DNA of 34,270 nt from a virus (lineage: Duplodnaviria; Caudoviricetes), in the IMG/VR virus record IMGVR_UViG_3300037461_000334, positions 1-34,270 of that record; one strand, 5' to 3'. Shown in pieces: positions 7,995 to 34,270 of this stretch. Numbering within the stretch: position 1 is the stretch's first letter; the number at the start of each line of letters is the position of its first letter. The translations under genes were made by a program, and so were the position numbers. The notes below the pieces were generated by a model. The model saw only the letters and a list, made by a program, of their open reading frames with translations. It ran no database searches and was not told the DNA's origin.

Positions 7995-8305
7995 CTTAAT
8001 TTATTTGGTGGCCTTTCGCCGTCATAAATCTTAACCAGTCCACGATTAGCAAGTGATTTGAACCGCCTTGCCGGAAGGTCCTGAACATCCCCCTCATACA
8101 GGTCCTCAATCATCCCCTTATAGTCATGCAGTACAATAACCCGAACATGACCATCAGGAACCGGGACCTTAGTCAGGTAAATCTTCTTTTGAAAGACCGG
8201 TTGTCCTTCCTGTTTCTCTTTTATTGCCGAGCTTATCGTTTCGACAATAATCGGTTGCTTGATCTTCTTCTTGATCGTGTTCTCTGTTGTCATTGCCTTG
8301 CTCAT
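7991..8305 (-). CDS. hypothetical head-module protein
   Basis: ATGA-coupled on both sides; C-terminal GDVQDL...R...L..RGLV resembles small proteins often found after capsid genes. Confidence 0.6.
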   Translation of the reverse strand: MSKAMTTENTIKKKIKQPIIVETISSAIKEKQEGQPVFQKKIYLTKVPVPDGHVRVIVLHDYKGMIEDLYEGDVQDLPARRFKSLANRGLVKIYDGERPPNKLR

Positions 8306-9276
8306 AGTCTTTTCATTATTGCATCCATTAAAAACTGTTCCATGTCATTAAGCTCTTTGGTATGTGATTTACATACCTCTTCAGCCCTTTTAAGTGCCCT
8401 TGTACTTGCCTTCTTGTACTCTTCCGGGTCATCCAGCTTCTTTATCGCCTCAATCCATGACAGAGGACTTTCAACCCGACAATAAATACCAGCGTCACCC
8501 ATTGACTCCTGTAATCCGGGAGTCGGGTTTGCTATAACAGGAATACCGGAAGACATCGCCTCAATAGCGGTTCTGCCATAGCTTTCATAAATTGAAGGCA
8601 TTAACAGAATCCTTGTTTTGCTGTAAATCTTTTTAGCATCCGATGTATTGGCCATGTATTCAACATTTGCCAGCCCCTCATCTTTAAGTTGTTTCCCGTA
8701 CCCGCCTTCAACACCGAGAAAGCTGTAATCCGGGAGCAGCCGAGCAAGATCGTGGAATAATGGCGATCCCTTGCGCTCAAAAAGGTTAATAAGGGTTAAC
8801 TTATTCCCCTTCTTTGCAACCTTATACCGCTTCGGATCCACCGGCGGATGAACAACAACGGAAGGGTTAGGGTATGCAAGCTCTTTAGCTGTGAAATTTG
8901 AATTATAAATACAATAAACAAATCTACCCTGTCCCCTGGGTTTGTCCTTCACCCTGATAACGTCAAAATTATTTGTGTTATGGATAACCACCGTGACAGG
9001 TTTATGATAAGCCTGTGCCATGTTAATAGCCTTGCCGGAGCGGTCCAGATGCGTTATTATCATGTCGCAGTTCTTAACAGCATCATGTGTGTAGCTGAAA
9101 TCATCCAGGTTAACCTGAACGCCCTCAAACTCGTAAGGCTTCAGCCTGCTTATCGGAAGCACCACCTCCACTTTATGCCCGGATGATACAAGGTGCTTGC
9201 ACATCTCATGGAGCATCCATTCAGCCCCTGCGTTCTGAATTGGCGGATAACCATGAATCATTACTAAAAATTTCAT
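8302..9276 (-). CDS. glycosyltransferase family 4 (GT-B)
   Basis: YPP..NAGAE N-terminus; KG; LLMPS.YESYGRTAIEAMSSGIPVIA (EX7E signature). Confidence 0.9.
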   Translation of the reverse strand: MKFLVMIHGYPPIQNAGAEWMLHEMCKHLVSSGHKVEVVLPISRLKPYEFEGVQVNLDDFSYTHDAVKNCDMIITHLDRSGKAINMAQAYHKPVTVVIHNTNNFDVIRVKDKPRGQGRFVYCIYNSNFTAKELAYPNPSVVVHPPVDPKRYKVAKKGNKLTLINLFERKGSPLFHDLARLLPDYSFLGVEGGYGKQLKDEGLANVEYMANTSDAKKIYSKTRILLMPSIYESYGRTAIEAMSSGIPVIANPTPGLQESMGDAGIYCRVESPLSWIEAIKKLDDPEEYKKASTRALKRAEEVCKSHTKELNDMEQFLMDAIMKRL

Positions 9277-14211: not shown

Positions 14212-14228
14212 ATACACCTTAGTTTATT

Positions 14229-14247
14229 TTTATTTAGACTGAATAAA
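14229..14247. promoter_or_regulatory. 19-bp 9-1-9 palindromic operator-like site (copy 1)
   Basis: TTTATTTAG-A-CTGAATAAA; 17/19 identical to the site at 21932-21950. Confidence 0.55.
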
Positions 14248-14298
14248 AATTAATTAACTAAAAAAGGGGGATTATTAACTATCCGGGCGGAAAGTCAA

Positions 14299-16151: not shown

Positions 16152-16445
16152 TCAATCTGCAATAAAAGTAGCGTTCTCCAGCATATAAGCTATATTAGCC
16201 TTCTTGCTGATGATATGCTTTGATTTCATCCGGCTTAGCTCTGTCCGGTTGCATACCATGATAATATCAGAGCTGTAAGGAAAGCAGTAGTGCCTCTTTC
16301 CCGTTGCTACCGTTCTCTTCCTTGCGTATATCCTTGCAAGTAAATGGCGACCATAGCCGGCAAATGAATGAGCGGTGAACTTGTCACTTATATAAATAAA
16401 ATGCAAATTCTTTACAAATAGCTTTATGTTTGTCCAGATTTTCAT
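16152..16445 (-). CDS. hypothetical basic protein
   Basis: ORF coupled (TAATG) to the upstream glycosyltransferase. Confidence 0.6.
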   Translation of the reverse strand: MKIWTNIKLFVKNLHFIYISDKFTAHSFAGYGRHLLARIYARKRTVATGKRHYCFPYSSDIIMVCNRTELSRMKSKHIISKKANIAYMLENATFIAD

Positions 16446-17029
16446 TAATTATGAACAAATAAGGGTTTATTAACATGAATAAGATCGTATTTATTAGCAA
16501 TAGATAAGGCCCGGCACTCTTCAGCATAGATACCGTCAGCATCGAAATCAACATGATTGAACCCTATCGCTTTCGCAACCGGGTACTTAACAATAAAAGC
16601 TCCCATGTCTATATAACTCCTTTTCAACTGTGACTCATGCACCGTGTATTTAAAATGAGAATGAACGGTGTCGCAGTAAACTATCCCGATAGTCCGGGAG
16701 CATTTACCGAGCATGGTTTCAACAAATACCGGCACATACCAGTTATCATCATTGGTCAGTAATATATAATCCATATCATCGCCCTCAAGTGCATCCAGCA
16801 TCTTCTTCCTGTTCGGATGGCCATACAACCCGTTGCGTTTGGCTGATGCATAAAACTCTATGCGCTTGTCATCATATAGCCCCATGACCTCACAGATTGA
16901 TTTCGGGGCTGGACCATCATACATGATATAAAGTTTCCATCGTGGATCCGTCTGCCGGATGAAACAATCAATAAGCCCCCTTAATTCAATGGGCCTTTCA
17001 TAAGCTACTGCGATAACGTGTAATATCAT
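16445..17029 (-). CDS. glycosyltransferase family 2 (GT-A)
   Basis: VAYER..L, QTDP.W.L.IMYDG, TNDDN (DxD-like), IDMG, DADG motifs. Confidence 0.85.
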   Translation of the reverse strand: MILHVIAVAYERPIELRGLIDCFIRQTDPRWKLYIMYDGPAPKSICEVMGLYDDKRIEFYASAKRNGLYGHPNRKKMLDALEGDDMDYILLTNDDNWYVPVFVETMLGKCSRTIGIVYCDTVHSHFKYTVHESQLKRSYIDMGAFIVKYPVAKAIGFNHVDFDADGIYAEECRALSIANKYDLIHVNKPLFVHN

Positions 17030-17718
17030 TCCGGTTGCATTAATTCACATTTGCGACAAATAATATCCGAGTCCTGTTCATTTGATAGCATGGTATAATC
17101 TTCCCGGTTCAGGTTATCAAAATGGGTATCGTACAAGTTGCCTATGCAATGCTTTAATCCGTAATCCTGGCAGCACAAATAAACATTTCCATTTGGAAGT
17201 ACCACGTTATGATCAAATTTCTTCTCCGCAAAAAGACAATGGAAGGTACCTAACTGCTCCGGCCTGTCCCATACATTCCCTGCCCTTGACCATTTCCATT
17301 GATCGGTAATAACAGCCGTTCTACCCTGGCATATCTTTCTTTCAAATAGTTCTTTTTTCTTTGCAAATTCAGCAGCATCAGCGTGAGGGTAAAGATGAAA
17401 GCACAGATCGGTAAACTGCACACCCTTTAAAAATTGCACATCTGACTTGCTGAAGTTACTCAGGGTTGTATAGAGGACAACCTTATATCCCCGGTCAAAT
17501 GCATACCATATCATTTGCGCCCCGAATGAATTATAAAATATCTCTGAAAATCCTGAAAAGTCGATCCTCACATCTTTGGGTACATTGGATAAAATATGGA
17601 TAAAGTTTTCAAGAGTCATTGATCTTAACCCCTCATAAGACTTCCTTAATAACCCCTGCGGACAGTAAGCGCATCCCACCGGGCAACCGATATATGATGT
17701 TATTTCAAGCGTTCTCAT
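17026..17718 (-). CDS. radical SAM protein with SPASM/twitch domain
   Basis: GCPVGCAYCPQ (CxxxCxxC), FSGFSE, C-terminal C...GNVYLCCQDY..IGNL...CRKC. Confidence 0.9.
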   Translation of the reverse strand: MRTLEITSYIGCPVGCAYCPQGLLRKSYEGLRSMTLENFIHILSNVPKDVRIDFSGFSEIFYNSFGAQMIWYAFDRGYKVVLYTTLSNFSKSDVQFLKGVQFTDLCFHLYPHADAAEFAKKKELFERKICQGRTAVITDQWKWSRAGNVWDRPEQLGTFHCLFAEKKFDHNVVLPNGNVYLCCQDYGLKHCIGNLYDTHFDNLNREDYTMLSNEQDSDIICRKCELMQPE

Positions 17719-18508
17719 TAAATATAGCGTTTATTTCTCTTTGTATACAGTCAGCGTAATCGTGGTATTCTATTGCCTTAACGTAGTTCTCAAGCCGTGA
17801 CAGCTGACACTTGTAGTAATCTCTTTCCTCAAGTGAGTTGCAAATCTTTATCAACTCGTCAACTGAGGTAAATTTTAATATACCTTCAGGGTTAAAGAAA
17901 TTATCCACGTTACTTGCCCCCCAATAGATCGGAACCGTGTTAGTGATCATTGGATCAATCAGCTTTTCAGAAAATGAGTTTGGATAATCATAACTATCTA
18001 TGGCAATATGGAACATAGTTCTCATGGCCCTCTGCTTATCCCGTTTGTCGTATCCAAGCTCCAGCTCGCTCCTCATCCCGGTCCTTGCTCCGGTATAAAA
18101 CCACTTCGGGACCTTTATTTCGTCACGTCTTTTATATAACTCATGTCTCAATGAATGACCGGGACAAGCGTTGCGAGCAGAGAACACAGCGGAGACTCCA
18201 AATATTTTTGGTATATTTATCTCAGGCTTGCAGAATGCAGTTAACCCGATAAAAAAGCGGGCTTTCGGTAGGTGTAAAAGTTCAGGTATAAATGTAAGCA
18301 GATAATCAAATCTGTCCTGATTATCAATGATCAGCTTGTTGAAGTGTCCCTCCGGCTGGATGGTTGCAAATATAACTGTCGTTCCTATTTTGGGAAAGCC
18401 TTTGAGATATTCGGGGATTTCATAATCAATAACCAGGTCAACCGGCGAAGGCACGGTTATCTCATGGTCAAGAATTTCCTCGAAGTTTGCGTATATGTTT
18501 GCCTTCAT
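17705..18508 (-). CDS. GT10 alpha-1,3-fucosyltransferase-like glycosyltransferase
   Basis: FHIAIDS....FSEKLID.....TVPIYWGA resembles the GT10 fucosyltransferase motif. Confidence 0.75.
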   Translation of the reverse strand: MKANIYANFEEILDHEITVPSPVDLVIDYEIPEYLKGFPKIGTTVIFATIQPEGHFNKLIIDNQDRFDYLLTFIPELLHLPKARFFIGLTAFCKPEINIPKIFGVSAVFSARNACPGHSLRHELYKRRDEIKVPKWFYTGARTGMRSELELGYDKRDKQRAMRTMFHIAIDSYDYPNSFSEKLIDPMITNTVPIYWGASNVDNFFNPEGILKFTSVDELIKICNSLEERDYYKCQLSRLENYVKAIEYHDYADCIQREINAIFNENA

Positions 18509-19086
18509 ATTTTCGGTAACCTTTTAAAATCAGCATTGCCCCATGTCCGACCTATCCATTTAACACCCATCAGATAAAATCCCTGTTCATACAGCCATTC
18601 TACAACATCCATAAACATGGGACAGCCCTCGTAAAGCTCTGCCCTGTAAACTTCAACCTCAACTGTCTTAATGCTTTTAAGCGATTCAACCGCCCCCTTC
18701 AGTACCTCCATTTCATAACCCTGAACGTCAATATGCAGATGGTCATAAAGCGACCGGTCGTATTCTATATTGTCCAGCTTATCAATGAAACACATTTCCT
18801 TTCCTGAAAAAACTATATCAGGATACTGCTCCAGGTGAACAAGCGGGTTAAGCACCGAGCAGGATTTTCCGCCGTGAACCTTCTCAAGATTTATCATAAC
18901 CGCCCCGGTCATGTTACCGATTGCCAGTCGAAAGGTCTTGATGTTGTCTTTCTTTGGCAGTATCTCACACATCTTTTTATATGTTTCGGCAATGGGTTCA
19001 AAAAATATAAAGTTTTCAACCCCTTCGGCAACCCAGCCCTCATACTCCTGCGCAAGGTTTGCACCAACCTGAATAACTCCTTTCAT
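18505..19086 (-). CDS. FkbM-family SAM-dependent methyltransferase
   Basis: QVGAN, FFEP, AIG, KLD, IDVQGYE.EVLKGA, EV...ELYEG motifs. Confidence 0.9.
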   Translation of the reverse strand: MKGVIQVGANLAQEYEGWVAEGVENFIFFEPIAETYKKMCEILPKKDNIKTFRLAIGNMTGAVMINLEKVHGGKSCSVLNPLVHLEQYPDIVFSGKEMCFIDKLDNIEYDRSLYDHLHIDVQGYEMEVLKGAVESLKSIKTVEVEVYRAELYEGCPMFMDVVEWLYEQGFYLMGVKWIGRTWGNADFKRLPKI

Positions 19087-19892
19087 ACTGGTTTAAATGT
19101 TGAATCCGGTTTAGGTATGTCAAATAAATATTGAGCTATCGCCTCGCCATTGCGGAAGCACTGCTCGTGCCATTGTAAGGTCTGTGTATAGTGCCACCCG
19201 GCTCCCATCTTCTTATTCCATTCGCTTAACCGCTTCTGATAGTCAGCAATTTTCTGCATATACAGCTCAAGATTCCAGAACTTATAATGCAGTACCTTCC
19301 ACTCCCGATCGGTACACATCCTTATCCCCCGACTATCCTGGTTCTTGTCAAGAGGACTGGCCCAATGCGCCCCGGTAACATAGCGTATCTCACTTATTTC
19401 CTCCGGGCGGAAGCAACACAGCTTCTCCTCCGGCACATGATAAGTTCCCCTCTGTGAGTGAACAAAGGGATGATCGGCTGTGTATAACGGAGCATTTAAA
19501 GAAATCATATTGTACCCGCAGGGCTTGATCATATTAAAACCCCTTTTGTAAACCTCAGTAAGGTCAAGATCAAATACAGGTTTCCCTTCAATCACTCTTG
19601 CCCTGCAAAATATTTCATCGAAATCGACAATGACAACCCACTCGCATAGCCCCCTTGATTCTTTCCACGAATAATTTTTTATTTCAAGATACAGGTCATC
19701 CCTGATCTGATTATCGGAATCATAAAGACGAATCTCAACACGGGGATCCTGCTGTAATAATTCAACCGTGTTATCCGTACTCATATTGTCATATACAACT
19801 ATCCGCTCCGCCTCTTTATACGCAGTAAGAAAGTTTTTAACGAAGTGGCTTTCGTTATACGTGAGAGTATATACGTGTATCCTGTTTTTCAT
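19083..19892 (-). CDS. glycosyltransferase family 2 (GT-A)
   Basis: Probable start MKNRIHVYTLTYNE at 19892 (ATGA overlap); VYDN.STDNT, WVVIVDFDE, LHYK motifs. Confidence 0.85.
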   Translation of the reverse strand: MKNRIHVYTLTYNESHFVKNFLTAYKEAERIVVYDNMSTDNTVELLQQDPRVEIRLYDSDNQIRDDLYLEIKNYSWKESRGLCEWVVIVDFDEIFCRARVIEGKPVFDLDLTEVYKRGFNMIKPCGYNMISLNAPLYTADHPFVHSQRGTYHVPEEKLCCFRPEEISEIRYVTGAHWASPLDKNQDSRGIRMCTDREWKVLHYKFWNLELYMQKIADYQKRLSEWNKKMGAGWHYTQTLQWHEQCFRNGEAIAQYLFDIPKPDSTFKPV

Positions 19893-20542
19893 CCTATATG
19901 TTTGCAATATTTGTCTAATAATGTTACTGCTCTGAATCCCTTCTGATAATAAGCCTGTCCGATCCTGCACTCGGTTAATGCGTTAAAATCTCCAGGCTGA
20001 ATAAACCCGGTAAACGGAGCAACCAGTTGATAATCCGCCAACCGCCTTAAGCCAGGATTCCATGAGAAACCGTGCCATGATCCACCGAGTGCTCCGGTTG
20101 CCATGTACCGGTAATTAATATTTTTGAGGTTATAAACCGTTGGTTCGACCGGGTGAGTGTTCGTGTCCTGCAATCCCCTTAACCATACCTGTAAAATCTT
20201 TGGAAACTCCTCAAGTATCTGAAGGCTCGCACTCATAAATCCTGACTTGTAGAACTCCCAGTCATTCTCTAAATGAAAGATAAATGGAGTTTTAACCTTG
20301 CTATAAGCCCAGTCAATAGAGGGTATTTGCCCCTGATTAGTCCGGTTAAAAAATAACCTTACCGGTATATGAAAATCGAACAATTCAAAGTATTGTCTTA
20401 TCTCATCATGCACCTCCTGTTTGCCGGAGTCGTCAATCAGTATTATCTCATCAAGACAAACATCATTGAACTCCATAAATGAACTGAAGGTTTGCCTTAA
20501 CAAACTAACCCGACCGCATGATGTGATGACAAGAGTTATCAT
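19889..20542 (-). CDS. glycosyltransferase family 2-like
   Basis: ITSCGR..LL..T..SF, IDDSG, N.GQ..SID.AY, FHLENDW, FSWNPGLRR, HIG motifs. Confidence 0.8.
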   Translation of the reverse strand: MITLVITSCGRVSLLRQTFSSFMEFNDVCLDEIILIDDSGKQEVHDEIRQYFELFDFHIPVRLFFNRTNQGQIPSIDWAYSKVKTPFIFHLENDWEFYKSGFMSASLQILEEFPKILQVWLRGLQDTNTHPVEPTVYNLKNINYRYMATGALGGSWHGFSWNPGLRRLADYQLVAPFTGFIQPGDFNALTECRIGQAYYQKGFRAVTLLDKYCKHIG

Positions 20543-21138
20543 GCCATATTTATTTTTGCGTTCTCTTCCATTTCTGCCCGGTAATCAAAATCCGTAAGCC
20601 GGATGTCTGAATAACTCGGCCTCTGCCATGCGATAAGCGGAGAGCAGACAAAGCAGTTAAGTAGTGCCTGACCTCTCATAAATAGCCAGTGATCAATCTG
20701 ATTAAACTCTTTATTATCGGGATCCCATAACTCTATCATCTTTCTCCTTCCCTTTGCACTGTAAAGCATAGCATGGGTACAATGAACCCCGCCGGTAATC
20801 ATATACAGATTTTCGCTGTACTTAATCGCAGGTGTTTTAACATTTGCACCCAGATAAAGAATATCAAAATCAGAGGGTAATTGTTTAATAGCCTTCAGAA
20901 ATATATCACTCCAATTATCCGATAGATGTATGTCATCTTCAAAGATCAGTATTGAATGATTGAAGTCCTGTTTTAAAACTGCATGATGACTCAAAGCACA
21001 GCCCCTCTCCCCGCTATGTGATACTATTGCGGAGAACCTTTGATAATCGGTTATGCCGGCCTTCTCAAGCTCACTGACAGTCTCTGACCAGCGATCCTGA
21101 CGAAAATCCAAATTAATGACAATTATATCAAGCCCCAT
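20539..21138 (-). CDS. glycosyltransferase family 25-like
   Basis: INLD.RQDRW, RFSAI, GCALSH, LIFEDD, DILYLG, THA, ID.W, QRPSYSDI motifs. Confidence 0.9.
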   Translation of the reverse strand: MGLDIIVINLDFRQDRWSETVSELEKAGITDYQRFSAIVSHSGERGCALSHHAVLKQDFNHSILIFEDDIHLSDNWSDIFLKAIKQLPSDFDILYLGANVKTPAIKYSENLYMITGGVHCTHAMLYSAKGRRKMIELWDPDNKEFNQIDHWLFMRGQALLNCFVCSPLIAWQRPSYSDIRLTDFDYRAEMEENAKINMA

Positions 21139-21908
21139 ACATTTGTTTTCAAGTTATCACTTGAACAGGTATTTTCATCCCTGTATTCATGCAACCTCTC
21201 TCCCAGCCTTAACCCGGTTACTTTTATTTTTGTCTTATCATTGCCGTATTTTTGAATAAAAGCAGAGGCTAGATCAATTAATTTATAAGCATCCATCGGC
21301 ACTGTATGAGTCCCCGGATCATCCATTTTTGAAAGTATGAAATCAACGATAGTCTGCGGTGAAATGAAAAACCGAGTCATATCCATTGATGTTATACTGA
21401 TTTCGTTCTTTTCCCTTATCTGATCAAGCCATATATTTAAAACCGATCCATTCGACCAGAGTATATTCCCTGATCTTATGTTTGTAAACCCAGCCTGCAA
21501 TACAACAGCCTCAATCAGTGATTTAGTCCGCCCGTAAACTGAGCCCGGATTAACCGCCTTGTCACTGCTCATGTTAATCAGCTTACAGCCATTAAGAATA
21601 CAGGCGTTAATAACATTTAATGAACCCTGCACGTTTGTCATTATGGCCTCCCGTGCGTTCTGCTCACAAATGTCAATATGTTTTAGTGCCGCTAAATGGA
21701 AGCAGTAATCCTGCCCCTTAATCGCTTTATAAACGCCGGATGAATCCCTTATATCCCCAATTATGTAATTAAATTCCGGGTGCTTCGCTTTCATTTCAGC
21801 CTGCCTCTGCTCTCCTCTTGAAAATATAGTAACATCATAACCTTTAAGGCTTTTTGCCATACATCGACCAATTGTTCCCGTTCCCCCGGTTATTAGGCTT
21901 TTTTTCAT
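21123..21908 (-). CDS. NAD-dependent nucleotide-sugar dehydratase (UDP-GlcNAc 4,6-dehydratase, PseB/FlaA1/CapD-like)
   Basis: ITGGTGTIG, GDIRD, FHLAALKH, TNV.GS.NV, SSDKAVNP.SVYG.TK, MTRFF, GLR.GERLHE motifs. Confidence 0.9.
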   Translation of the reverse strand: MKKSLITGGTGTIGRCMAKSLKGYDVTIFSRGEQRQAEMKAKHPEFNYIIGDIRDSSGVYKAIKGQDYCFHLAALKHIDICEQNAREAIMTNVQGSLNVINACILNGCKLINMSSDKAVNPGSVYGRTKSLIEAVVLQAGFTNIRSGNILWSNGSVLNIWLDQIREKNEISITSMDMTRFFISPQTIVDFILSKMDDPGTHTVPMDAYKLIDLASAFIQKYGNDKTKIKVTGLRLGERLHEYRDENTCSSDNLKTNVWGLI

Positions 21909-21931
21909 ACTGTAAATTTCAGCATATTATT

Positions 21932-21950
21932 TTTAATTAGACTAAATAAA
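21932..21950. promoter_or_regulatory. 19-bp 9-1-9 palindromic operator-like site (copy 2)
   Basis: TTTAATTAG-A-CTAAATAAA upstream of the glycosylation operon; 17/19 identical to 14229-14247. Confidence 0.55.
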
Positions 21951-22074
21951 TATAAAAGGTTATTAACTAATTGCATGAAGCTATTAACTTAACTATATCT
22001 GCTCAAATAGAGTGATTAGAGTAGGATTGTTACTTATACCCGGTAGTTGTATGCAAGCGTAAAAGACACAGCAT

Positions 22075-22838
22075 TTAATCAACTGTTGTGCAACTTTTAC
22101 CGTATTTTTTAAAAGCCCTGCCCGCTTCGGTTTTTTCAAAACCGTTTGAATTATCATAGTGCTTTGGGTATGGTTTCTCTTTTAGTAAACATTTTGCAAT
22201 TGATTTTTGGTTAATAAAATAAATGTATCTGAATTGCCTTAATTCAATTTTAGTTGCTTTTTCGTGGAATCCTTTAGCCTCTAATCTTGCTTTACTGTTC
22301 CTGTTATTATTAGTTATATGGCTGTTGTGGTAAATCTCATTTTCAAATTCCCACATTACATTCGTGTGTTCGCCATAAAACTTGAAATTAGCCGCTTGGT
22401 AAACAATACCCAAACCACCACATCTTTCATCAGCAAAACTCTGAATCCATTTTACTTTGGGAAATTTGCCACGAATGTATTTTATACTGTATGATATTGC
22501 CCTGCTTTCTGTATTTCTTGGTGCTTTATCATCAAACCACATTCGGTTTAATTCTTTATACTCATTTAGTTCTGTATCACTAACAACAGATGCCATACTT
22601 TGCGGATTCATTGCATATCCATATTGTAATACACCCAAAAGCTCGCCATTTATAAAACAGCCCAAATGAATATGAGTTGTTGCATCATTACAAACTTTGT
22701 GGCTATAATGGTTTTTTATTACCAGCTCTTTGCTTTTTTGTTTTGCAATTTCTTTAATATAAAAATCAGGTTCACCAAAGCCAATTATTTCAGGTTTACC
22801 AAATAATGTCGGGTTTGTAATATAATTTTTTTTGCCAT
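22075..22838 (-). CDS. mom: Mu Mom-family DNA adenine modification protein; ATG at 22838 is out of frame across an A8 run (254 aa if one A is added or -1 slippage occurs)
   Basis: NHYS, HLG.F....L.GVLQYGYAMNP, ELNRMW..D..PRN.ESRAISY, WIQSFADERCG..G.VYQA.NF, QFRYI, PYPK match recalled Mu Mom sequence; Mom frame continues upstream of the track's TTG start (22665) to the A-run at 22826-22833. Confidence 0.85.
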
Positions 22839-22902
22839 CGCTCTGCTTTTAAAAAATACTATTGTCGTTCATTTAATTATCATTTGCGGTTAAAAAACGC
22901 CA

Positions 22903-23004
22903 GCATACAACACGTTGTATATGTCAGTTTTGCCAATTGGCTTTTGTGCTTTGAATCGAAGTATGTGCGTGGCAAAACCGAACACATACAACCATTCGTT
23001 AGGT
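22903..23004. repeat. integron attC-like imperfect hairpin
   Basis: Arms GTTGTATATGTCAGTTTTGCCA (22914-22935) and TGGCAAAACCGAACACATACAAC (22970-22992), bounded by ..ATACAAC (ends 22911) and GTTAGGT (22998-23004). Confidence 0.6.
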
Positions 23005-23110
23005 TGCATACTCGCCCTCGCTATTTTTTAAAGGCATTAACAGGCGAAATCCAGGACAACGGCAGTTTTGACAAACAGCCGTGACACATGACAATGACAG
23101 GCTACTGAAC

Positions 23111-23995
23111 CTACAAGTATGTAAGTTCAATAGCCTTGAAAATTTGATACGGTACATAAGGATTAACTGAGTTACCAAGTGCTCTTATTCTGTCCACCCG
23201 ATGGGATACCCTTGCATTACTTCTGCAAAGTTCGGATGCAACTTCAATCCAGTCTCGTAACCAATTTGCCTGCCCGGTTCGTCTAATCGTTTCCGATTCC
23301 CTTTTTGTTTGCTCATACCGGGCGTATCCTTCCAAGACCTCGCAGTCAATGTAGCAATCGCTGTCTGGACATCCATTCCACCCGTCCCGTGTATTCCCGG
23401 ACTGTTTGCCGATTGCGCCTTCAAAGTTGGAATTGACTTCAATTTGCCTGTTAAAGTTAATGTTACCGGCCGGGTTTTGTCCCCATTGCTGTACTGATAA
23501 TTTCCGCTTTCTTGACTCCTGATTGTAGGCAATGATCCATACCCGTTCTCTTTTATCCCACGCTCCGACGCTTGCAGATGGAATAATAAACGGTTGGACT
23601 TCATAACCCTCACCTTCCAGCGCAAGGCAAATATTTTCGAGTTCCATTCCGATGATCCCAGGAACATTCTCACCAACGATGAAAGGCGACCGTACCTCTC
23701 GTATAACTCGAAACATTTCCGGCCAGAGATGACGGTCATCTCCTTTCCCTTTTTGCTTCCCTGCAACGGAAAAAGGTTGGCAAGGAAACCCTCCTGTAAT
23801 GATGTCGATTTTTCCTTCATATTCTTTACCATTAAAATCTTTAATATCCAGATAGCACTTTGATTCAGGAAAATGCTTTGCAACCTTTGAGTTGCACCAT
23901 TGATCAATCTCAACATGAGCAATATTATTCCAACCCATCCATGATGCAGCTAACTGAAAACCCCCGATACCGTTGAATAATGCTAAGTGATCCAT
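23111..23995 (-). CDS. dcm: DNA (cytosine-5)-methyltransferase, alpha subunit
   Basis: Motif I LFNGIGG, IV GGFPCQPFS, VI ENVPG, VIII KRERVW, X ALGNSV; motif IX not evident in this frame. Confidence 0.9.
   Translation of the reverse strand: MDHLALFNGIGGFQLAASWMGWNNIAHVEIDQWCNSKVAKHFPESKCYLDIKDFNGKEYEGKIDIITGGFPCQPFSVAGKQKGKGDDRHLWPEMFRVIREVRSPFIVGENVPGIIGMELENICLALEGEGYEVQPFIIPSASVGAWDKRERVWIIAYNQESRKRKLSVQQWGQNPAGNINFNRQIEVNSNFEGAIGKQSGNTRDGWNGCPDSDCYIDCEVLEGYARYEQTKRESETIRRTGQANWLRDWIEVASELCRSNARVSHRVDRIRALGNSVNPYVPYQIFKAIELTYL
23185..23922 (-). CDS. nested alternative-frame beta subunit of the C5 methyltransferase (true start probably internal)
   Basis: 245-codon same-strand overlapping ORF ending TLTARSWKD...KLHPNFAEVMQGYPIGWTE (target-recognition/motif IX-like). 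Confidence 0.65.
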   Translation of the reverse strand: MLMLRLINGATQRLQSIFLNQSAIWILKILMVKNMKEKSTSLQEGFLANLFPLQGSKKGKEMTVISGRKCFELYERYGRLSSLVRMFLGSSEWNSKIFALRWKVRVMKSNRLLFHLQASERGIKENGYGSLPTIRSQESGNYQYSNGDKTRPVTLTLTGKLKSIPTLKAQSANSPGIHGTGGMDVQTAIATLTARSWKDTPGMSKQKGNRKRLDEPGRQIGYETGLKLHPNFAEVMQGYPIGWTE

Positions 23996-24092
23996 GTTTC
24001 TATTAATTTTGGCCTACCGGCCACGCCTGTTAAAGCCTTTAAAAATAGGTTGCATACCATATCGGGTATAATTTCAGCAAATACACGCCTAT

Positions 24093-24503
24093 TCATACCT
24101 TATCGGGTATAAGTTGCCTAACCTTATTCCAATACCTGTCAGTTCCTCTGCCGGATCCATTCCAGTCCCTCGCAATTTTCTCATAGTCCCGCCCTCTTGC
24201 ATAATACCGGAAGACCTTTTCAGCCTTGCCCCTGTTAAGCATATCGGATAACTCATACCTTATGCCTGTCCTCTGATAATAGTCGTCGAGCCTTATCTGC
24301 CGTACCTGGAAGAAGCCATAAGCCTGCTCGCTGTGATTAATTGCGCTGTCATTATGCGAGCTTTCAACAAAACCGATAGCATCTATTAACCTTGCATAAC
24401 AGTCAACCGGCGGGGTATATTCAACGCAAATTGTGCGGTACTCCGGGGCGTAAATCTCCGCAGAGATAAGCAGGAAGAAAAGTAGTTTAATTATTCGCTT
24501 CAT
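24093..24503 (-). CDS. lysozyme/transglycosylase-like protein with N-terminal signal peptide
   Basis: AI..VES (catalytic Glu), A.G.FQ, IAR.WNG...YW.KV motifs; MKR plus hydrophobic N-terminus. Confidence 0.65.
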   Translation of the reverse strand: MKRIIKLLFFLLISAEIYAPEYRTICVEYTPPVDCYARLIDAIGFVESSHNDSAINHSEQAYGFFQVRQIRLDDYYQRTGIRYELSDMLNRGKAEKVFRYYARGRDYEKIARDWNGSGRGTDRYWNKVRQLIPDKV

Positions 24504-24524
24504 TGCATTTGTTTTTGCCGTAAA

Positions 24525-24770
24525 TTATTGCTTAATGTACGGCATAGTTTCGAAAGATTCTGTCGCCATTATTTGCTTATTTTGCGACAACTCCGCAAGC
24601 CTTTGCTGTACCCTAATCTCATTACCACTAATAAGATAACATACTAATTTTCTGCCCATAACACACTTTCTTAATACTCGCAAAGCCTTAAAAGAAGTAT
24701 AATTATTTCCCGTAACCCCCTCGGCTAATAACTTATTGACTACAACATCTAATAATTCTTCTTGCTTCAT
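24525..24770 (-). CDS. hypothetical protein
   Basis: ORF track; co-oriented, tightly packed. Confidence 0.55.
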   Translation of the reverse strand: MKQEELLDVVVNKLLAEGVTGNNYTSFKALRVLRKCVMGRKLVCYLISGNEIRVQQRLAELSQNKQIMATESFETMPYIKQ

Positions 24771-24771
24771 C

Positions 24772-24969
24772 TCATTTAACCTCTATTATCCATCCTAAAA
24801 TTTTGTCAACCTCGGCATCCGATAATTCAGATGTTGTTTTATATCCCTTAGATATTCCATATTCCAAAACTCTTTTGACATTCCGCTTACTTAAAAACCT
24901 CCCCCTGTGTGTAAATGCTGGATAGCTTCTATTAAGTTGGTCTAAGGCTCCTTGTATATCTGCATTCAT
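24772..24969 (-). CDS. hypothetical protein
   Basis: ORF track; ATGA overlap. Confidence 0.6.
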   Translation of the reverse strand: MNADIQGALDQLNRSYPAFTHRGRFLSKRNVKRVLEYGISKGYKTTSELSDAEVDKILGWIIEVK

Positions 24970-25274
24970 AATCCTAAATCTTTCCTTAGTTGCTCAATTT
25001 CAACCTCTAATTCACATTTCATTCCAAAATACTGGTTTGGATTGCTTAAATGAAATCCATTCTTAAGGATATAGAGTAATGCCAGCGTTGCATCAATTAA
25101 CTTATCCTTTTTCTCTGTCAATTCCTCAAAATGCTGATTCGCATTTGCTTCATAAATATCGGGATTACATAATGCCTCAAACTCGGCAATCTTCATAATC
25201 TCATCAGCACATTTTCCTATATTCGCAAAATTTGGAAAATACTTTTGTAGAATTTTAAATACTTTCTCTTCCAT
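24966..25274 (-). CDS. hypothetical protein
   Basis: Likely start MEEKVFK at 25274, just after the upstream stop (track ORF extends to 25322). Confidence 0.55.
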   Translation of the reverse strand: MEEKVFKILQKYFPNFANIGKCADEIMKIAEFEALCNPDIYEANANQHFEELTEKKDKLIDATLALLYILKNGFHLSNPNQYFGMKCELEVEIEQLRKDLGL

Positions 25275-25275
25275 G

Positions 25276-25449
25276 TTAATTAGTTTCTTCATTGTTCGTA
25301 GGTTTATATAAATGAATCCCAACGGTTATAAATAATAGACTTATGCTCATCCCGCAATGTATGGCATCTGTACAGGTGCTTATATTGAATCCCAGATGAA
25401 GGGACTTAACCACCCTGTAATGGTTGCGATATGAAAAGTATAGTTTCAT
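25276..25449 (-). CDS. small hypothetical protein (57 aa)
   Basis: Manually translated MKLYFSYRNHYR...; fills the gap with TAATG coupling. Confidence 0.45.
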   Translation of the reverse strand: MKLYFSYRNHYRVVKSLHLGFNISTCTDAIHCGMSISLLFITVGIHLYKPTNNEETN

Positions 25450-25604
25450 TATTCGTTATTCAATAATTTACCCATTTTCTTTAATAACTCTCGCTCAAGA
25501 ATTATATCATTGGCATCCTTTAATTTACGGGCACGGCCAATAAACCACAGGAAACCCATAACTATCAGGACGATTAAGGCGGACCACATCAGTAATTTTA
25601 TCAT
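25449..25604 (-). CDS. small membrane protein (51 aa)
   Basis: Manually translated MIKLLMWSALIVLIVMGFLWFIGRARK...; ATGA overlap with upstream gene. Confidence 0.55.
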   Translation of the reverse strand: MIKLLMWSALIVLIVMGFLWFIGRARKLKDANDIILERELLKKMGKLLNNE

Positions 25605-25834
25605 TGGATTAGATCACTAATGTTAATATTATAATCCTCATAAAGCCCGTTAATCGCATCAAATATTTCACCAATAGCCTCATCCGCCGTCTGTAAATTA
25701 CTATTCTCCGTCCGCCGCCGTAGGTTGTAACTTATATCCGATAGCACAATAGCCATATCCAGCGACTTGACACATCTCATGTGCGCCATTCTGTCATCGG
25801 GATCATCCAGATTAAATTCAAGTGTTGCTTTCAT
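25601..25834 (-). CDS. hypothetical phage protein
   Basis: ORF track; ATGA-coupled. Confidence 0.65.
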   Translation of the reverse strand: MKATLEFNLDDPDDRMAHMRCVKSLDMAIVLSDISYNLRRRTENSNLQTADEAIGEIFDAINGLYEDYNINISDLIQ

Positions 25835-26229
25835 GGTTTATCAGGTAAAATGATTTTATTAAAGTCCAGTTTGTGCTTAACATAACCATAGTTATTGCGG
25901 AACTTGTAATCAGTTTCAATTAAGCATTTAGCCCGTGTCATTGAATTATAGAACGGCTGATGCGTATCATAGCACCCGGTTAATAATGATACCTCCCGGA
26001 AGCTCCAGCCACAGTCATTGTATAGCACATAGCGCAATAAGTGCCTGCCGTCAGATAACTCCCGCTCCCTGCACTTGCTTATTATTCCGCTTTCATTTGC
26101 CTCAAATAGCCGGGCAATACACCCTGTCAGTGTCTCCGGCAAATGGTCGATGGTGCTTACCACTCCCGGACAGGTGTAGAAGTTGCGCCCCATACGCCTG
26201 TCGATTATTCTGTCTGCTATTACTTGCAT
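25831..26229 (-). CDS. DnaA C-terminal (domain IV)-like helix-turn-helix protein
   Basis: I.SK.R.REL.D.RH...Y.L....GWS..E.....H pattern resembles DnaA_C. Confidence 0.5.
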   Translation of the reverse strand: MQVIADRIIDRRMGRNFYTCPGVVSTIDHLPETLTGCIARLFEANESGIISKCRERELSDGRHLLRYVLYNDCGWSFREVSLLTGCYDTHQPFYNSMTRAKCLIETDYKFRNNYGYVKHKLDFNKIILPDKP

Positions 26230-30335: not shown

Positions 30336-30506
30336 TTATAAAATGCAGATAAAAATTAAGGCGAGGGCATAAATAAAAAAACTAATAAACTTGCCTATAA
30401 ATTCAGCAACTTCATGTAATTCATCTGCTGATAACATTACTAAAAGGCTGTCTATTAGTTTTCCCAAAGTGGCTGTTGACAAAACAATAATTATATAAGT
30501 TTTCAT
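30336..30506 (-). CDS. small membrane protein (56 aa)
   Basis: Manually translated MKTYIIIVLS...FFIYALALIFICIL; ATGA overlap with upstream ORF. Confidence 0.45.
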   Translation of the reverse strand: MKTYIIIVLSTATLGKLIDSLLVMLSADELHEVAEFIGKFISFFIYALALIFICIL

Positions 30507-30718
30507 TTTGTGCTAACTATTTTAAGTAATACAAATTCATCATTGTTGCAGAAGCGACCGTCTTCCGGTGCTATAATTATTGTTTTACCGCCGTCAAGCA
30601 ACTGATCCTCACCCCTGGGTAATCCCATAAGGAACGCCCCGGTTTCAGTAAGCACGGCGATCTTGCAAAGCATCTGATCTTTGATGTGATAAGCCCTGTA
30701 TTTCGATAGGTTTTTCAT
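30503..30718 (-). CDS. hypothetical protein
   Basis: ORF track. Confidence 0.55.
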   Translation of the reverse strand: MKNLSKYRAYHIKDQMLCKIAVLTETGAFLMGLPRGEDQLLDGGKTIIIAPEDGRFCNNDEFVLLKIVSTK

Positions 30719-30832
30719 TTTTTACGGTTATTTAATTGTTGATATATCTCATCACTAATAGCTGTATTTTGACTTAATGTTGTAATAAGTCATCATTTTG
30801 TGAACTTCTTACGGCTATTCATTAGTACGTTG

Positions 30833-31558
30833 TTATGAACAAATTGCAATTCGCTTTTTGTTAAATAAGCTGTGAAGATTACGCTCATTAACTATAACAT
30901 CTCTTAAGGATTTGTTTTTGTGTAATAAATTGTGGCAATTAATACACACTATCAATATATTTTTTTTATTATGCAGGTTGATATGACGGGGTCTTTCACT
31001 TCTAAAAATGATGTGATGTGCCTCGTATTTTATTGAATTTGATACACCGCAATATTCACAATATATATAACCAACATCATCAATCATTCCCTGCTTTATC
31101 TCCTTGCTATTCTTTATGAATACTCTTTCACCGGGCGTACTTTTCCTTGCCGTTCTTGTATAATAACCATTTCTATATGCCGGGTTCCCGGTTCCAAGTA
31201 TTTTATTAGCCTTTTCTTCCGACCAATTATAAGATCTTAATTGCTTCTTATTTTGTATTCTACAATTTGCGGAGCAAAATTTATCAAGACTCGTATATGG
31301 TGTGAATGTTTTGCCACAGTAAAGACAGTCTTTGATCTTTGGCCTTTTACTTATTCTTTGAATATCGGCAATGCGTTTGCACTTTAAAGAACAATATTTA
31401 TTTGTAGTTGCCTTTGGCATAAACATTTTTCCGCAAATAACGCAAGGCTTTTCTTTGAAGAATCTTTTATTTATCCTTTTCCAGTATTCCCTATGGCATT
31501 TTTTAGAACAATAAATATTCCTGCCATTTGTATCCTTTCCGCAAAATTTACAATTCAT
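30833..31558 (-). CDS. HNH (homing-type) endonuclease with three N-terminal zinc-ribbon repeats
   Basis: Three C..CGK...(Y/F)CS..C repeats, GNP.YR.G, C-terminal CEYCG...EAHHI...N...VC..CH...H. Confidence 0.85.
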   Translation of the reverse strand: MNCKFCGKDTNGRNIYCSKKCHREYWKRINKRFFKEKPCVICGKMFMPKATTNKYCSLKCKRIADIQRISKRPKIKDCLYCGKTFTPYTSLDKFCSANCRIQNKKQLRSYNWSEEKANKILGTGNPAYRNGYYTRTARKSTPGERVFIKNSKEIKQGMIDDVGYIYCEYCGVSNSIKYEAHHIIFRSERPRHINLHNKKNILIVCINCHNLLHKNKSLRDVIVNERNLHSLFNKKRIAICS

Positions 31559-31630
31559 ATTTTTAGCTTAACAAACAAACCATTAAGAACAACAGCAAGC
31601 CGATTAACTCAAGAATGTAATAGATCTTTT

Positions 31631-32098
31631 TCATTTGTTGCTTTTTAACCATTCATGTATCTTGCCGGAGCAGTAGTCTTTAATACCTTCAACAGCCCCA
31701 TCCTTTCTTATTATCCATCCTTTCCCGTATTTCATATTTGCCCACTTCTCAATTTCTTCATCTGTCAAATCAGGCTTGATTTTGTTTTTGCTGTCAGCTT
31801 TCCTATGGTTAGATAGTATTTCAGAGTTTTTAAACCACTCCTTAATATAAGTTGTGTTGTCTGTCAAATCAGGCTTCTCTTGCCCCTGAGTGAGTTCATC
31901 GGCAATAGGCTGAAGATACCAATCAATATTATTAAGCCAGTTATCTTTTTGATGCTGATTTAAATGATTGAAATAACATAACACTGTACCAGCCGGAGAA
32001 TTATTGTCATATTTTTTATAATGAGCAATATACTGACCATCTTTCGGCAAATCCGCTTCTGATAGGATGTAAACCTTTTTAAATAGTTCTGTTTTCAT
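31631..32098 (-). CDS. hypothetical protein
   Basis: ORF track; internal KPDLTD duplication. Confidence 0.6.
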   Translation of the reverse strand: MKTELFKKVYILSEADLPKDGQYIAHYKKYDNNSPAGTVLCYFNHLNQHQKDNWLNNIDWYLQPIADELTQGQEKPDLTDNTTYIKEWFKNSEILSNHRKADSKNKIKPDLTDEEIEKWANMKYGKGWIIRKDGAVEGIKDYCSGKIHEWLKSNK

Positions 32099-33701: not shown

Positions 33702-34270
33702 TTAATAATTTAATGCTTCATCTTTGGTTATAAACCCGTGAATACCATGAGAGCATTCAATTAATGGAGACGGATCGAATGAATCAGGTCGGGTTATTTT
33801 GCCCACCTTATATAAGGTTTTATTATTGTGCATTCCCATCCCCTCCTTAAGTCTTTCTTTACCATCCCATATAGCAATGGTTTTTACATAAGAAAATCGG
33901 CATTTTCTCGATCCAATAGCATTAACTCTTTTTGCTTCTGCCGGGACTAATAGTTGTGCAATTAAACCGTCTTTTAATTTCTTCCATACAATTAAATCTC
34001 CTTCTGGTAAAATTGTATTTTGAGAATATATTTTATCAAGGTTTGCCCCGTCAAGGTTTGCCCCGTCAAGGTCTGCCCTGATAAGGTTTGCCCCGTCAAG
34101 GTTTGCCCCGTAAAGGTTTGCCTTGATAAGGTTTGCCCCGTCAAGGTTTGCCCCGTCAAGGTTTGCCCCGTCAAGGTTTGCCCCGTAAAGGTTTGCCTTG
34201 ATAAGGTTTGCCCCGTCAAGGTTTGCCCCGTCAAGGTTTGCCCCGTCAAGGTTTGCCCCGTAAAGGTTTG
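33702..34270 (-). CDS. pentapeptide-repeat protein with DUF5758-like C-terminal domain (5' truncated)
   Basis: Frame from 34268 reads (A)NLYG-ANLDG-ANLIK... then LPEGDLIVWKK...RKCR...ECSHGIHGFITKDEALNY-stop at 33702; the track shows the wrong (TGQTL) frame. Confidence 0.85.
   Translation of the reverse strand, partial: NLYGANLDGANLDGANLDGANLIKANLYGANLDGANLDGANLDGANLIKANLYGANLDGANLIRADLDGANLDGANLDKIYSQNTILPEGDLIVWKKLKDGLIAQLLVPAEAKRVNAIGSRKCRFSYVKTIAIWDGKERLKEGMGMHNNKTLYKVGKITRPDSFDPSPLIECSHGIHGFITKDEALNY
34036..34270. repeat. 15-bp coding tandem repeat (TCAAGGTTTGCCCCG and variants)
   Basis: About 15 near-identical units running off the window end. Confidence 0.95.

Follow-up and report, generated by a model that had tools for sequence, protein, structure and literature searches.

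A mom gene in a phage contig probably lies in an integron-like cassette of a hairpin-site family linked to an Xer-like recombinase

How a gene can come to sit in a phage genome as a discrete unit, with complementary ends and a foldable DNA site beside it, is the question raised by the mom gene of a linear virus contig of 34,270 nucleotides (G000), analysed here over its whole length as 'the window' and estimated to be 85% complete. Entirely on its minus strand, the window encodes head genes of the HK97 type, a block of glycosyltransferases and genes for replication. A reading made from its sequence alone (below, the sequence-only reading) had proposed that mom forms an integron-like gene cassette, and this proposal is borne out in its essentials by a replacement allele, by hairpins that lie in arrays next to unrelated genes and by units that move with the hairpin in front. 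From comparative sequence analysis, we consider it probable that the 952-bp unit defined in Table 1 is a gene cassette belonging to a hairpin-site family found in Bacteroidota and in their phages, likely inserted by an Xer-like recombinase from the host or from another phage.

The AT-richness of mom, noted earlier, is real (34% GC versus about 42% around it), but two other regions of the window, 24500–25500 and 30500–32000, are equally low. The neighbouring epimerase, used as a query for close relatives, yielded one distant match only, and the stretch itself is present in one sequencing run (X1), there as contigs, which may be the source of the window. Beside the terminase, glycosyltransferases, an FkbM methyltransferase, a SPASM protein and the epimerase (8302–9276 and 16445–21908) could glycosylate the virion or its DNA, and two palindromic AT-rich 30-mers, 87% identical (14224–14253 and 21927–21956), precede the portal and epimerase genes as a possible late promoter or operator.

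Table 1. Features of the mom locus and its surroundings (positions in the window).
Feature	Position	Strand	Basis or remark
Sugar epimerase	21123–21908		neighbour of mom on one side, with the C5 methyltransferase (23111–23995) on the other
Left site receiving the cassette, without hairpin; docking (attI-like) position	21994–22048	+	54 of 55 nt common with L116
R′ half-site, left end of cassette; crossover within GTT/AAC 22046–22048	22046–22054	+	identity with L021, L023 and L024 stops exactly at 22046
Probable cassette unit, 952 bp: mom (reverse) and its hairpin	22047–22998	+	L116 replacement; the same body recurs in 8 further contexts
mom reading frame, 257 aa between stops	22075–22848	-	PF25680, 8bv8
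7-codon leader frame	22849–22872	-	conserved in all sister cassettes
R″ half-site, complementary to R′ of the left end	22903–22911	+	
attC-like hairpin, Bacteroidota family	22905–23004	-	match to model R2; 86% identical hairpin in LR756500.1
Second, decayed cassette	22998–24046	+	starts at GTT 22998; R″ and hairpin missing after 24045
Inner inverted repeat of second cassette (22 nt), left arm	23025–23046	+	arms co-vary in L122
C5 cytosine methyltransferase, cargo of second cassette	23111–23995	-	PF00145, TIGR00675
Inner inverted repeat of second cassette, right arm	24024–24045	+	

The two half-sites are, as first described, exact reverse complements in the places where they had been reported; there is no direct extension on either side, and beyond them follow a T–T mismatch, a G–T pair and then four further paired bases. 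Equally confirmed in its place is the imperfect hairpin, with arms of 22 and 23 nt, one unpaired base and a closing GTTAGGT at 22998–23004, and the left core, GTTGTAT, matches GTTRRRY at six of seven positions. When both strands are folded, as had been proposed, the minus (gene-sense) strand does better (z −1.7, versus −0.8 for the plus strand), although the fold of the integrated hairpin is only modest. The 9-mer pair is by itself weak evidence: the window holds 127 perfect inverted 9-mer pairs spaced 600–1100 nt apart, two of which start with GTT. Since both the pair and the fold are weak, the significance of the locus has to come from a family model and from comparative data. The left site does not fold (z +0.7 and +0.8) and bears a weak likeness to the profile of recombinase-adjacent docking sites (score −1.7 versus a member median of 13; rank 33 of 1229). 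A 14-nt motif within it (22032–22045) recurs inverted past the methyltransferase gene, at 24058–24072 and 24100–24113, one of the inverted copies lying inside the 3′ end of an ORF at 24093–24503.

The covariance model (R2) was built from 45 unrelated recombinase-linked hairpins, out of 159 candidates, none of them from the window or from mom loci; compensatory change occurs in 16 of the 23 pairs of its alignment, and the family stem carries no conserved extrahelical base. Applied to the window, R2 finds the hairpin in front of mom as its sole significant match (minus strand, 42 bits, E 3e-6; next best E 0.77), in the same polarity as the recombinase-linked sites. The 86% identical hairpin listed in Table 1 is one of eight array hairpins in the 462-kb phage LR756500.1, where it stands beside other genes – similar hairpins do, in other words, accompany unrelated genes elsewhere, and in arrays. 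The sister-cassette hairpin is present in five GTDB genomes, and its confinement to Bacteroidota among these matches suggests Bacteroidota as the host group of this phage.

Genome neighbourhoods show the existence of this hairpin-site family and its tight link to an Xer-like recombinase. In the 80 best of the 229 viral loci that have the enzyme, 229 hairpins lie upstream of it (in 284 kb) versus 13 downstream (in 426 kb), set against a detector background of 10 matches in 381 kb of shuffled sequence, and 227 of the 229 upstream hairpins have the same polarity. In bacterial genomes, the hairpins are found downstream of the recombinase in three of four cases, the contig ending in the fourth. None of the five Bacteroidota genomes with the sister hairpin contains an integron integrase above the TIGR02249 cut-off; their best matches belong to a recombinase family that resembles archaeal XerA more than IntI4 and has, in the insertion region, 23 residues where IntI4 has 65 – about 42 fewer. 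The window itself, as far as 85% of the genome allows, encodes no tyrosine recombinase, nor any remnant detectable by profile, which extends the earlier observation that it lacks an integron integrase. No recombinase in cis was found in five mom-cassette records, one of them a complete genome, or in five further array records that include the 462-kb phage; a related contig (G006) carries an integrase, but one outside the array-linked family. The 'host or distant tyrosine recombinase' invoked by the sequence-only reading would most likely be a member of this Xer-like family without the IntI insertion. As for cargo, 20 of the 60 longest frames (of 139) in recombinase-linked arrays have a Pfam match, 15 being methyltransferases; this agrees in part with the anti-defence function proposed for the cassettes, although the copy of mom in the window is frameshifted. 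One cassette array, in Pedobacter, also contains a group II intron (L137, 1793–3225).

Both boundaries of the mom cassette are shown by sequence comparison with a replacement allele in G006, an 86-kb contig, 97% complete, that comprises the loci L116 and L121. It has the left site of the window up to its GTT and a counterpart of 22997–23029, 650 nt apart and separated by a 96-aa gene without a hairpin, followed by a 79-aa gene with a hairpin of its own. Identity with the window breaks at both predicted GTTs, so that the boundaries proposed earlier hold, with an overlap of only 3 nt. As G006 is otherwise not a close relative, the common sequence represents a shared module rather than a strain variant. 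The two contigs also share positions 1–102, 25453–25852 and 34038–34270 of the window, despite unrelated core genes; these modules include the 15-nt tandem repeat that a pentapeptide-like frame carries at the end of the contig. On the right, agreement among L116, L120, L122 and the window sets in with the G of 22998; to the left of it, their sequences diverge. Run X1 contains one 7365-nt contig with the left flank of the window, mom and the hairpin, without a single difference, as well as a separately assembled contig with the joint 22048–22997 as in L116, including its loose-end letters. The viral loci retrieved with the left-flank motif numbered eight, of which one was relevant, the other seven matches being due to chance, while the right-site motif retrieved three, all relevant; the empty-site allele that the sequence-only reading had proposed to look for was not found among the viral left-site matches, and no excised circle was seen.

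A similar picture is given by sister cassettes. A cassette-start motif was found in 30 loci (4 viral, 26 metagenomic), of which 11 encode mom, in eight contexts; the remaining 19 were set aside, mostly as chance matches, with L106 and L109 representing other cassettes. The sister mom bodies measure 858–875 nt and are 68–79% identical, their identity with the window ending at 22046. In six contexts, the hairpin in front of mom is 90–97% identical, the sequence before its AAC differs and the downstream sequence is only 33–60% alike, which identifies the unit as a hairpin plus the gene that follows it and supports the orientation proposed before, in which the hairpin in front of mom belongs to mom. 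The association is not invariable: the window hairpin is only 43–51% like that of the sister mom cassettes, L098 has mom without a hairpin and the first gene in L116 likewise lacks one, so that hairpin and gene have not always stayed together; in one context the hairpin is a chimera. Of 196 viral relatives of mom, the best 80 include 12 loci with complementary GTT/AAC ends, with nine different end sequences (50 of 2000 in mismatched controls). On a Mom tree of 60 rows – the same 80, less five dropped for internal stops and with identical rows merged – the cassette state changes 12 times, at least 11 of the changes being forced by well-supported branches, and the Mom of the window is nearest to the non-cassette L002 (82%), not to L021 and L023, which share its ends. 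This pattern indicates that Mom entered or left cassettes repeatedly and that bodies were exchanged, with homologous exchange also shaping mom units.

Movement can be followed more closely in cultured flavobacterial phages, in which the Xer-like family is also present: Polaribacter phage Freya, whose enzyme matches the family profile with E 2e-62, encodes both a recombinase and hairpins of the same families, whereas the window encodes no recombinase. When parts of 5 of 10 isolates were compared with Freya_10, Freya_9 was found to lack exactly 307 nt, corresponding to one hairpin and the gene behind it, the junctions overlapping by the 3 nt of an AAC; a stretch of 902 nt that ends on an AAC is missing from Freya_8, the other junction being the start of the record; and in Freya_6 a different sequence abuts the same AAC next to the integrase. 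Aligned records of cultured isolates thus show the AAC-precise loss of a whole unit. In the paper describing their isolation, the recombinase gene was read as a lysogeny integrase, and 'integron' and 'cassette' do not occur in its main text (PMC8776804).

The phage hairpin precedes its gene, the reverse of the arrangement in bacterial arrays. In 138 of 142 distinct phage array segments, the strand that bears the longest frame is the one whose first spacer is long, and 56 of these 138 ORFs start inside the upstream hairpin; in the bacterial arrays L109, L125 and L137–L139, most genes are on the opposite strand, facing the classical way. One cassette of L125 (6085–6892) is phage-style, its gene starting inside the upstream hairpin within an otherwise classical-facing bacterial array, and hints at host–phage exchange. 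The hairpins are imperfect, with an unpaired central spacer, and the gene-sense strand folds better in 199 of 214; in classical attC sites, it is the recombining bottom strand that has the more stable fold (PMC5027507). The two ends of a cassette vary in concert although hundreds of unrelated bases separate them, their pairing extending over about 14–15 bp; 35 of the 45 pairs examined in the family have a G–T at position 11 (pairs that had been selected for at least six matches), and the mom cassette fits this extended pairing, G–T at position 11 included. The site of the mom cassette in its circular form is predicted to fold at −26.6 kcal/mol, versus −19.9 for the integrated form. Cassette movement could be pictured as follows: the gene-sense strand would fold as single-stranded DNA and be cut at the AAC that precedes the hairpin; the cassette would leave as a circle, its two ends pairing into a long stem; and the circle would then re-enter at another AAC site.

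Several other explanations deserve consideration. That mom occupies a classical attC cassette, mobilised by an IntI of the host, as a single attC without an integrase of the kind seen in phage CALINs, is unlikely, even if the cores, the folded site and the strand skew match attC and IntI1 recombined five of six phage attC sites in one study, one from Polaribacter phage P12002L among them (PMC9892861): none of the five sister-hairpin genomes has a match above the TIGR02249 cut-off, the arrays track the shorter recombinase, extrahelical bases are not conserved in the stem of the family and, of 142 phage genes, 138 have the non-classical orientation. We regard as quite unlikely an arrangement in which both strands recombine and the gene body (22046–22911) and the hairpin are separately exchangeable modules. 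It could accommodate the divergence of the window hairpin from those of its sisters, the 86% identical hairpin beside other genes in LR756500.1 and the hairpins missing in L098 and before the first gene of L116, but six sister cassettes keep the upstream hairpin without having any downstream one in common, the deletion in Freya_9 took a hairpin along with its gene, and, among 12 homologous segment pairs, none has the downstream hairpin alone in common (both are shared in seven, which are identical records, the upstream one only in three, two of them independent, and neither in two).

There is very little to be said for the hairpin being only a terminator, a promoter or a 5′ leader structure, with sharp boundaries produced by homologous recombination between repeats – the outcome that would have spoken against a cassette from the beginning. 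The hairpin does lie 5′ of mom, a weak terminator-like match exists on the minus strand (23011–22984) and the tree is mosaic; yet terminator-like matches are near chance (3 versus 1.7 ± 1.4), the hairpins stay below the gathering score of every Rfam family (the best weak match, CyVA-1, with E 0.011, is below cut-off), the breakpoints overlap by only 3 nt and the co-variation of the ends spans unrelated sequence. A promoter scan was likewise near chance, and the Bacteroidota −7 motif was absent from the minus strand of 21900–24300. The hairpin may nonetheless have a second, regulatory role besides. Least probable of all, to the point that we reject it, is a canonical reading on the minus strand, in which the hairpin belongs to the previous cassette and an attC of mom's own has decayed downstream. 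Classical integron cassettes do carry attC after the gene, and the 9-mer pair would fit equally well; the upstream hairpin, however, travels with mom, the Freya_9 deletion comprises a hairpin and the gene following it, and 56 of 138 phage ORFs begin inside the hairpin upstream of them.

Returning to a hairpin-first cassette as the preferred reading, its cargo is clearly a Mom protein, matching Pfam PF25680 (E 2.6e-67) and, over its full length, PDB 8bv8 (E 4.9e-53). In the 8bv8 alignment, counted by hand, the positions of H48, Y49, R101, S114, D139 and Y149 of phage Mu Mom are kept; in contrast to Mu, the gene lies here in a cassette, lacks com and has its start codon out of frame. The last point had been overlooked by the sequence-only reading: relative to all eight sister cassettes, the window has a 1-nt deletion in an A run (22826–22833), which puts the ATG at 22838 out of frame and leaves TTG 22665 and ATT 22821 as the first in-frame alternatives. 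A contig of run X1 has the same letters at the frameshift, but X1 may consist of the window's own source reads. As the sequence stands, full-length Mom would be made here only by slippage on the eight As or from the weak ATT start. Mu Mom is described as conferring broad restriction resistance and as toxic if overexpressed (PMC7261163). A 20-nt intergenic stretch at 25352–25371 is complementary to mom coding sequence at 22586–22605 in 19 of 20 positions.

The adjoining second cassette has its complete end in L120 and L122 but not in the window. Three cargos of it are seen (window 22998–24058; L120 2501–3304; L122 271–1284) – a C5 methyltransferase, an N6/N4-type methyltransferase assigned by motif and a 166-aa frame – and the arms of its inner repeat co-vary among them. 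In the window, a 12-nt direct repeat of the cassette start follows the right arm, where the end should be. A small strong hairpin at 23059–23082 (z −4.5), between an AAC and a GTG, has a stem that co-varies in L120 and L122 and is possibly a second type of site. Nested in another frame of the C5 methyltransferase gene is a 254-codon minus-strand frame (23185–23949) that matches PHROG 1008, resembling the known kind of two-subunit methyltransferases with an overlapping frame. With no recombinase in the sequenced 85% of the genome, a neighbouring cassette without its end and a frameshifted mom, the array of the window has probably been frozen as a relic, its loading having taken place in trans or at a time when the enzyme was not yet lost.

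How does this compare with known systems? Classical integrons (PMC5027507, PMC7790495), as described there, share with the present family the GTT/AAC crossover core, complementary ends, an imperfect hairpin with an unpaired central spacer, one strand made more stable by G–T pairs and an array end at which the recombinase adjoins a docking site. They differ from it in that the linked recombinase here lacks the insertion carrying the I2 helix – held necessary for cassette capture, and letting IntI act on folded single strands (PMC7790495) – in that no extrahelical bases are conserved and the ends pair over about 14–15 bp with a G–T at position 11, and in that the genes in phages occupy the opposite strand and are preceded by the hairpin. 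The window unit would work like an integron cassette, yet departs from the classical family in three defining respects: conserved extrahelical bases, an IntI with the I2 insertion (searched for in G000 and the five Bacteroidota genomes) and the order of gene and then attC on the top strand.

Arrays of attC sites with methylase genes have been published for phages before: Qi et al. 2023 described phage attC sites and CALINs without integrase, reading their DNA methyltransferase cargo as anti-restriction (PMC9892861). Their attC-like sites, in integrase-less phage genomes that include one Bacteroidota (Polaribacter) phage, resemble ours, and the 17 CALINs of their Table S1 may include members of the hairpin family; the sites are read there as IntI substrates, and we saw in the text no mention of an Xer-like recombinase linked to the sites, of a hairpin-first polarity, of mom as cargo or of alleles that replace one another. 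IntegronFinder 2 reported one complete integron in Bacteroidetes proper (PMC9024848). A literature search that left most subscription journals outside its range found no publication on an Xer-like, hairpin-first system in Bacteroidota phages.

We are evenly divided on a broader proposal, namely that Bacteroidota phages run an integron equivalent of their own, in which an Xer-like recombinase without the I2 helix would recombine folded single-stranded sites without extrahelical bases, load hairpin-first anti-restriction cassettes (methyltransferases, Mom) and serve enzyme-less phages in trans, the A8 run tuning down toxic Mom rather than killing it. Integrons are bacterial stores of resistance and anti-phage genes; if the proposal is true, a phage cassette system with counter-defence cargo and an enzyme without the I2 insertion would be the matching shuffling device for phages, as well as a living model for the step before IntI. 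The cultured Freya phages and their host make the cassette system testable now, and the locus analysed here adds to it a clean replacement allele and shows Mom repeatedly entering and leaving cassettes.
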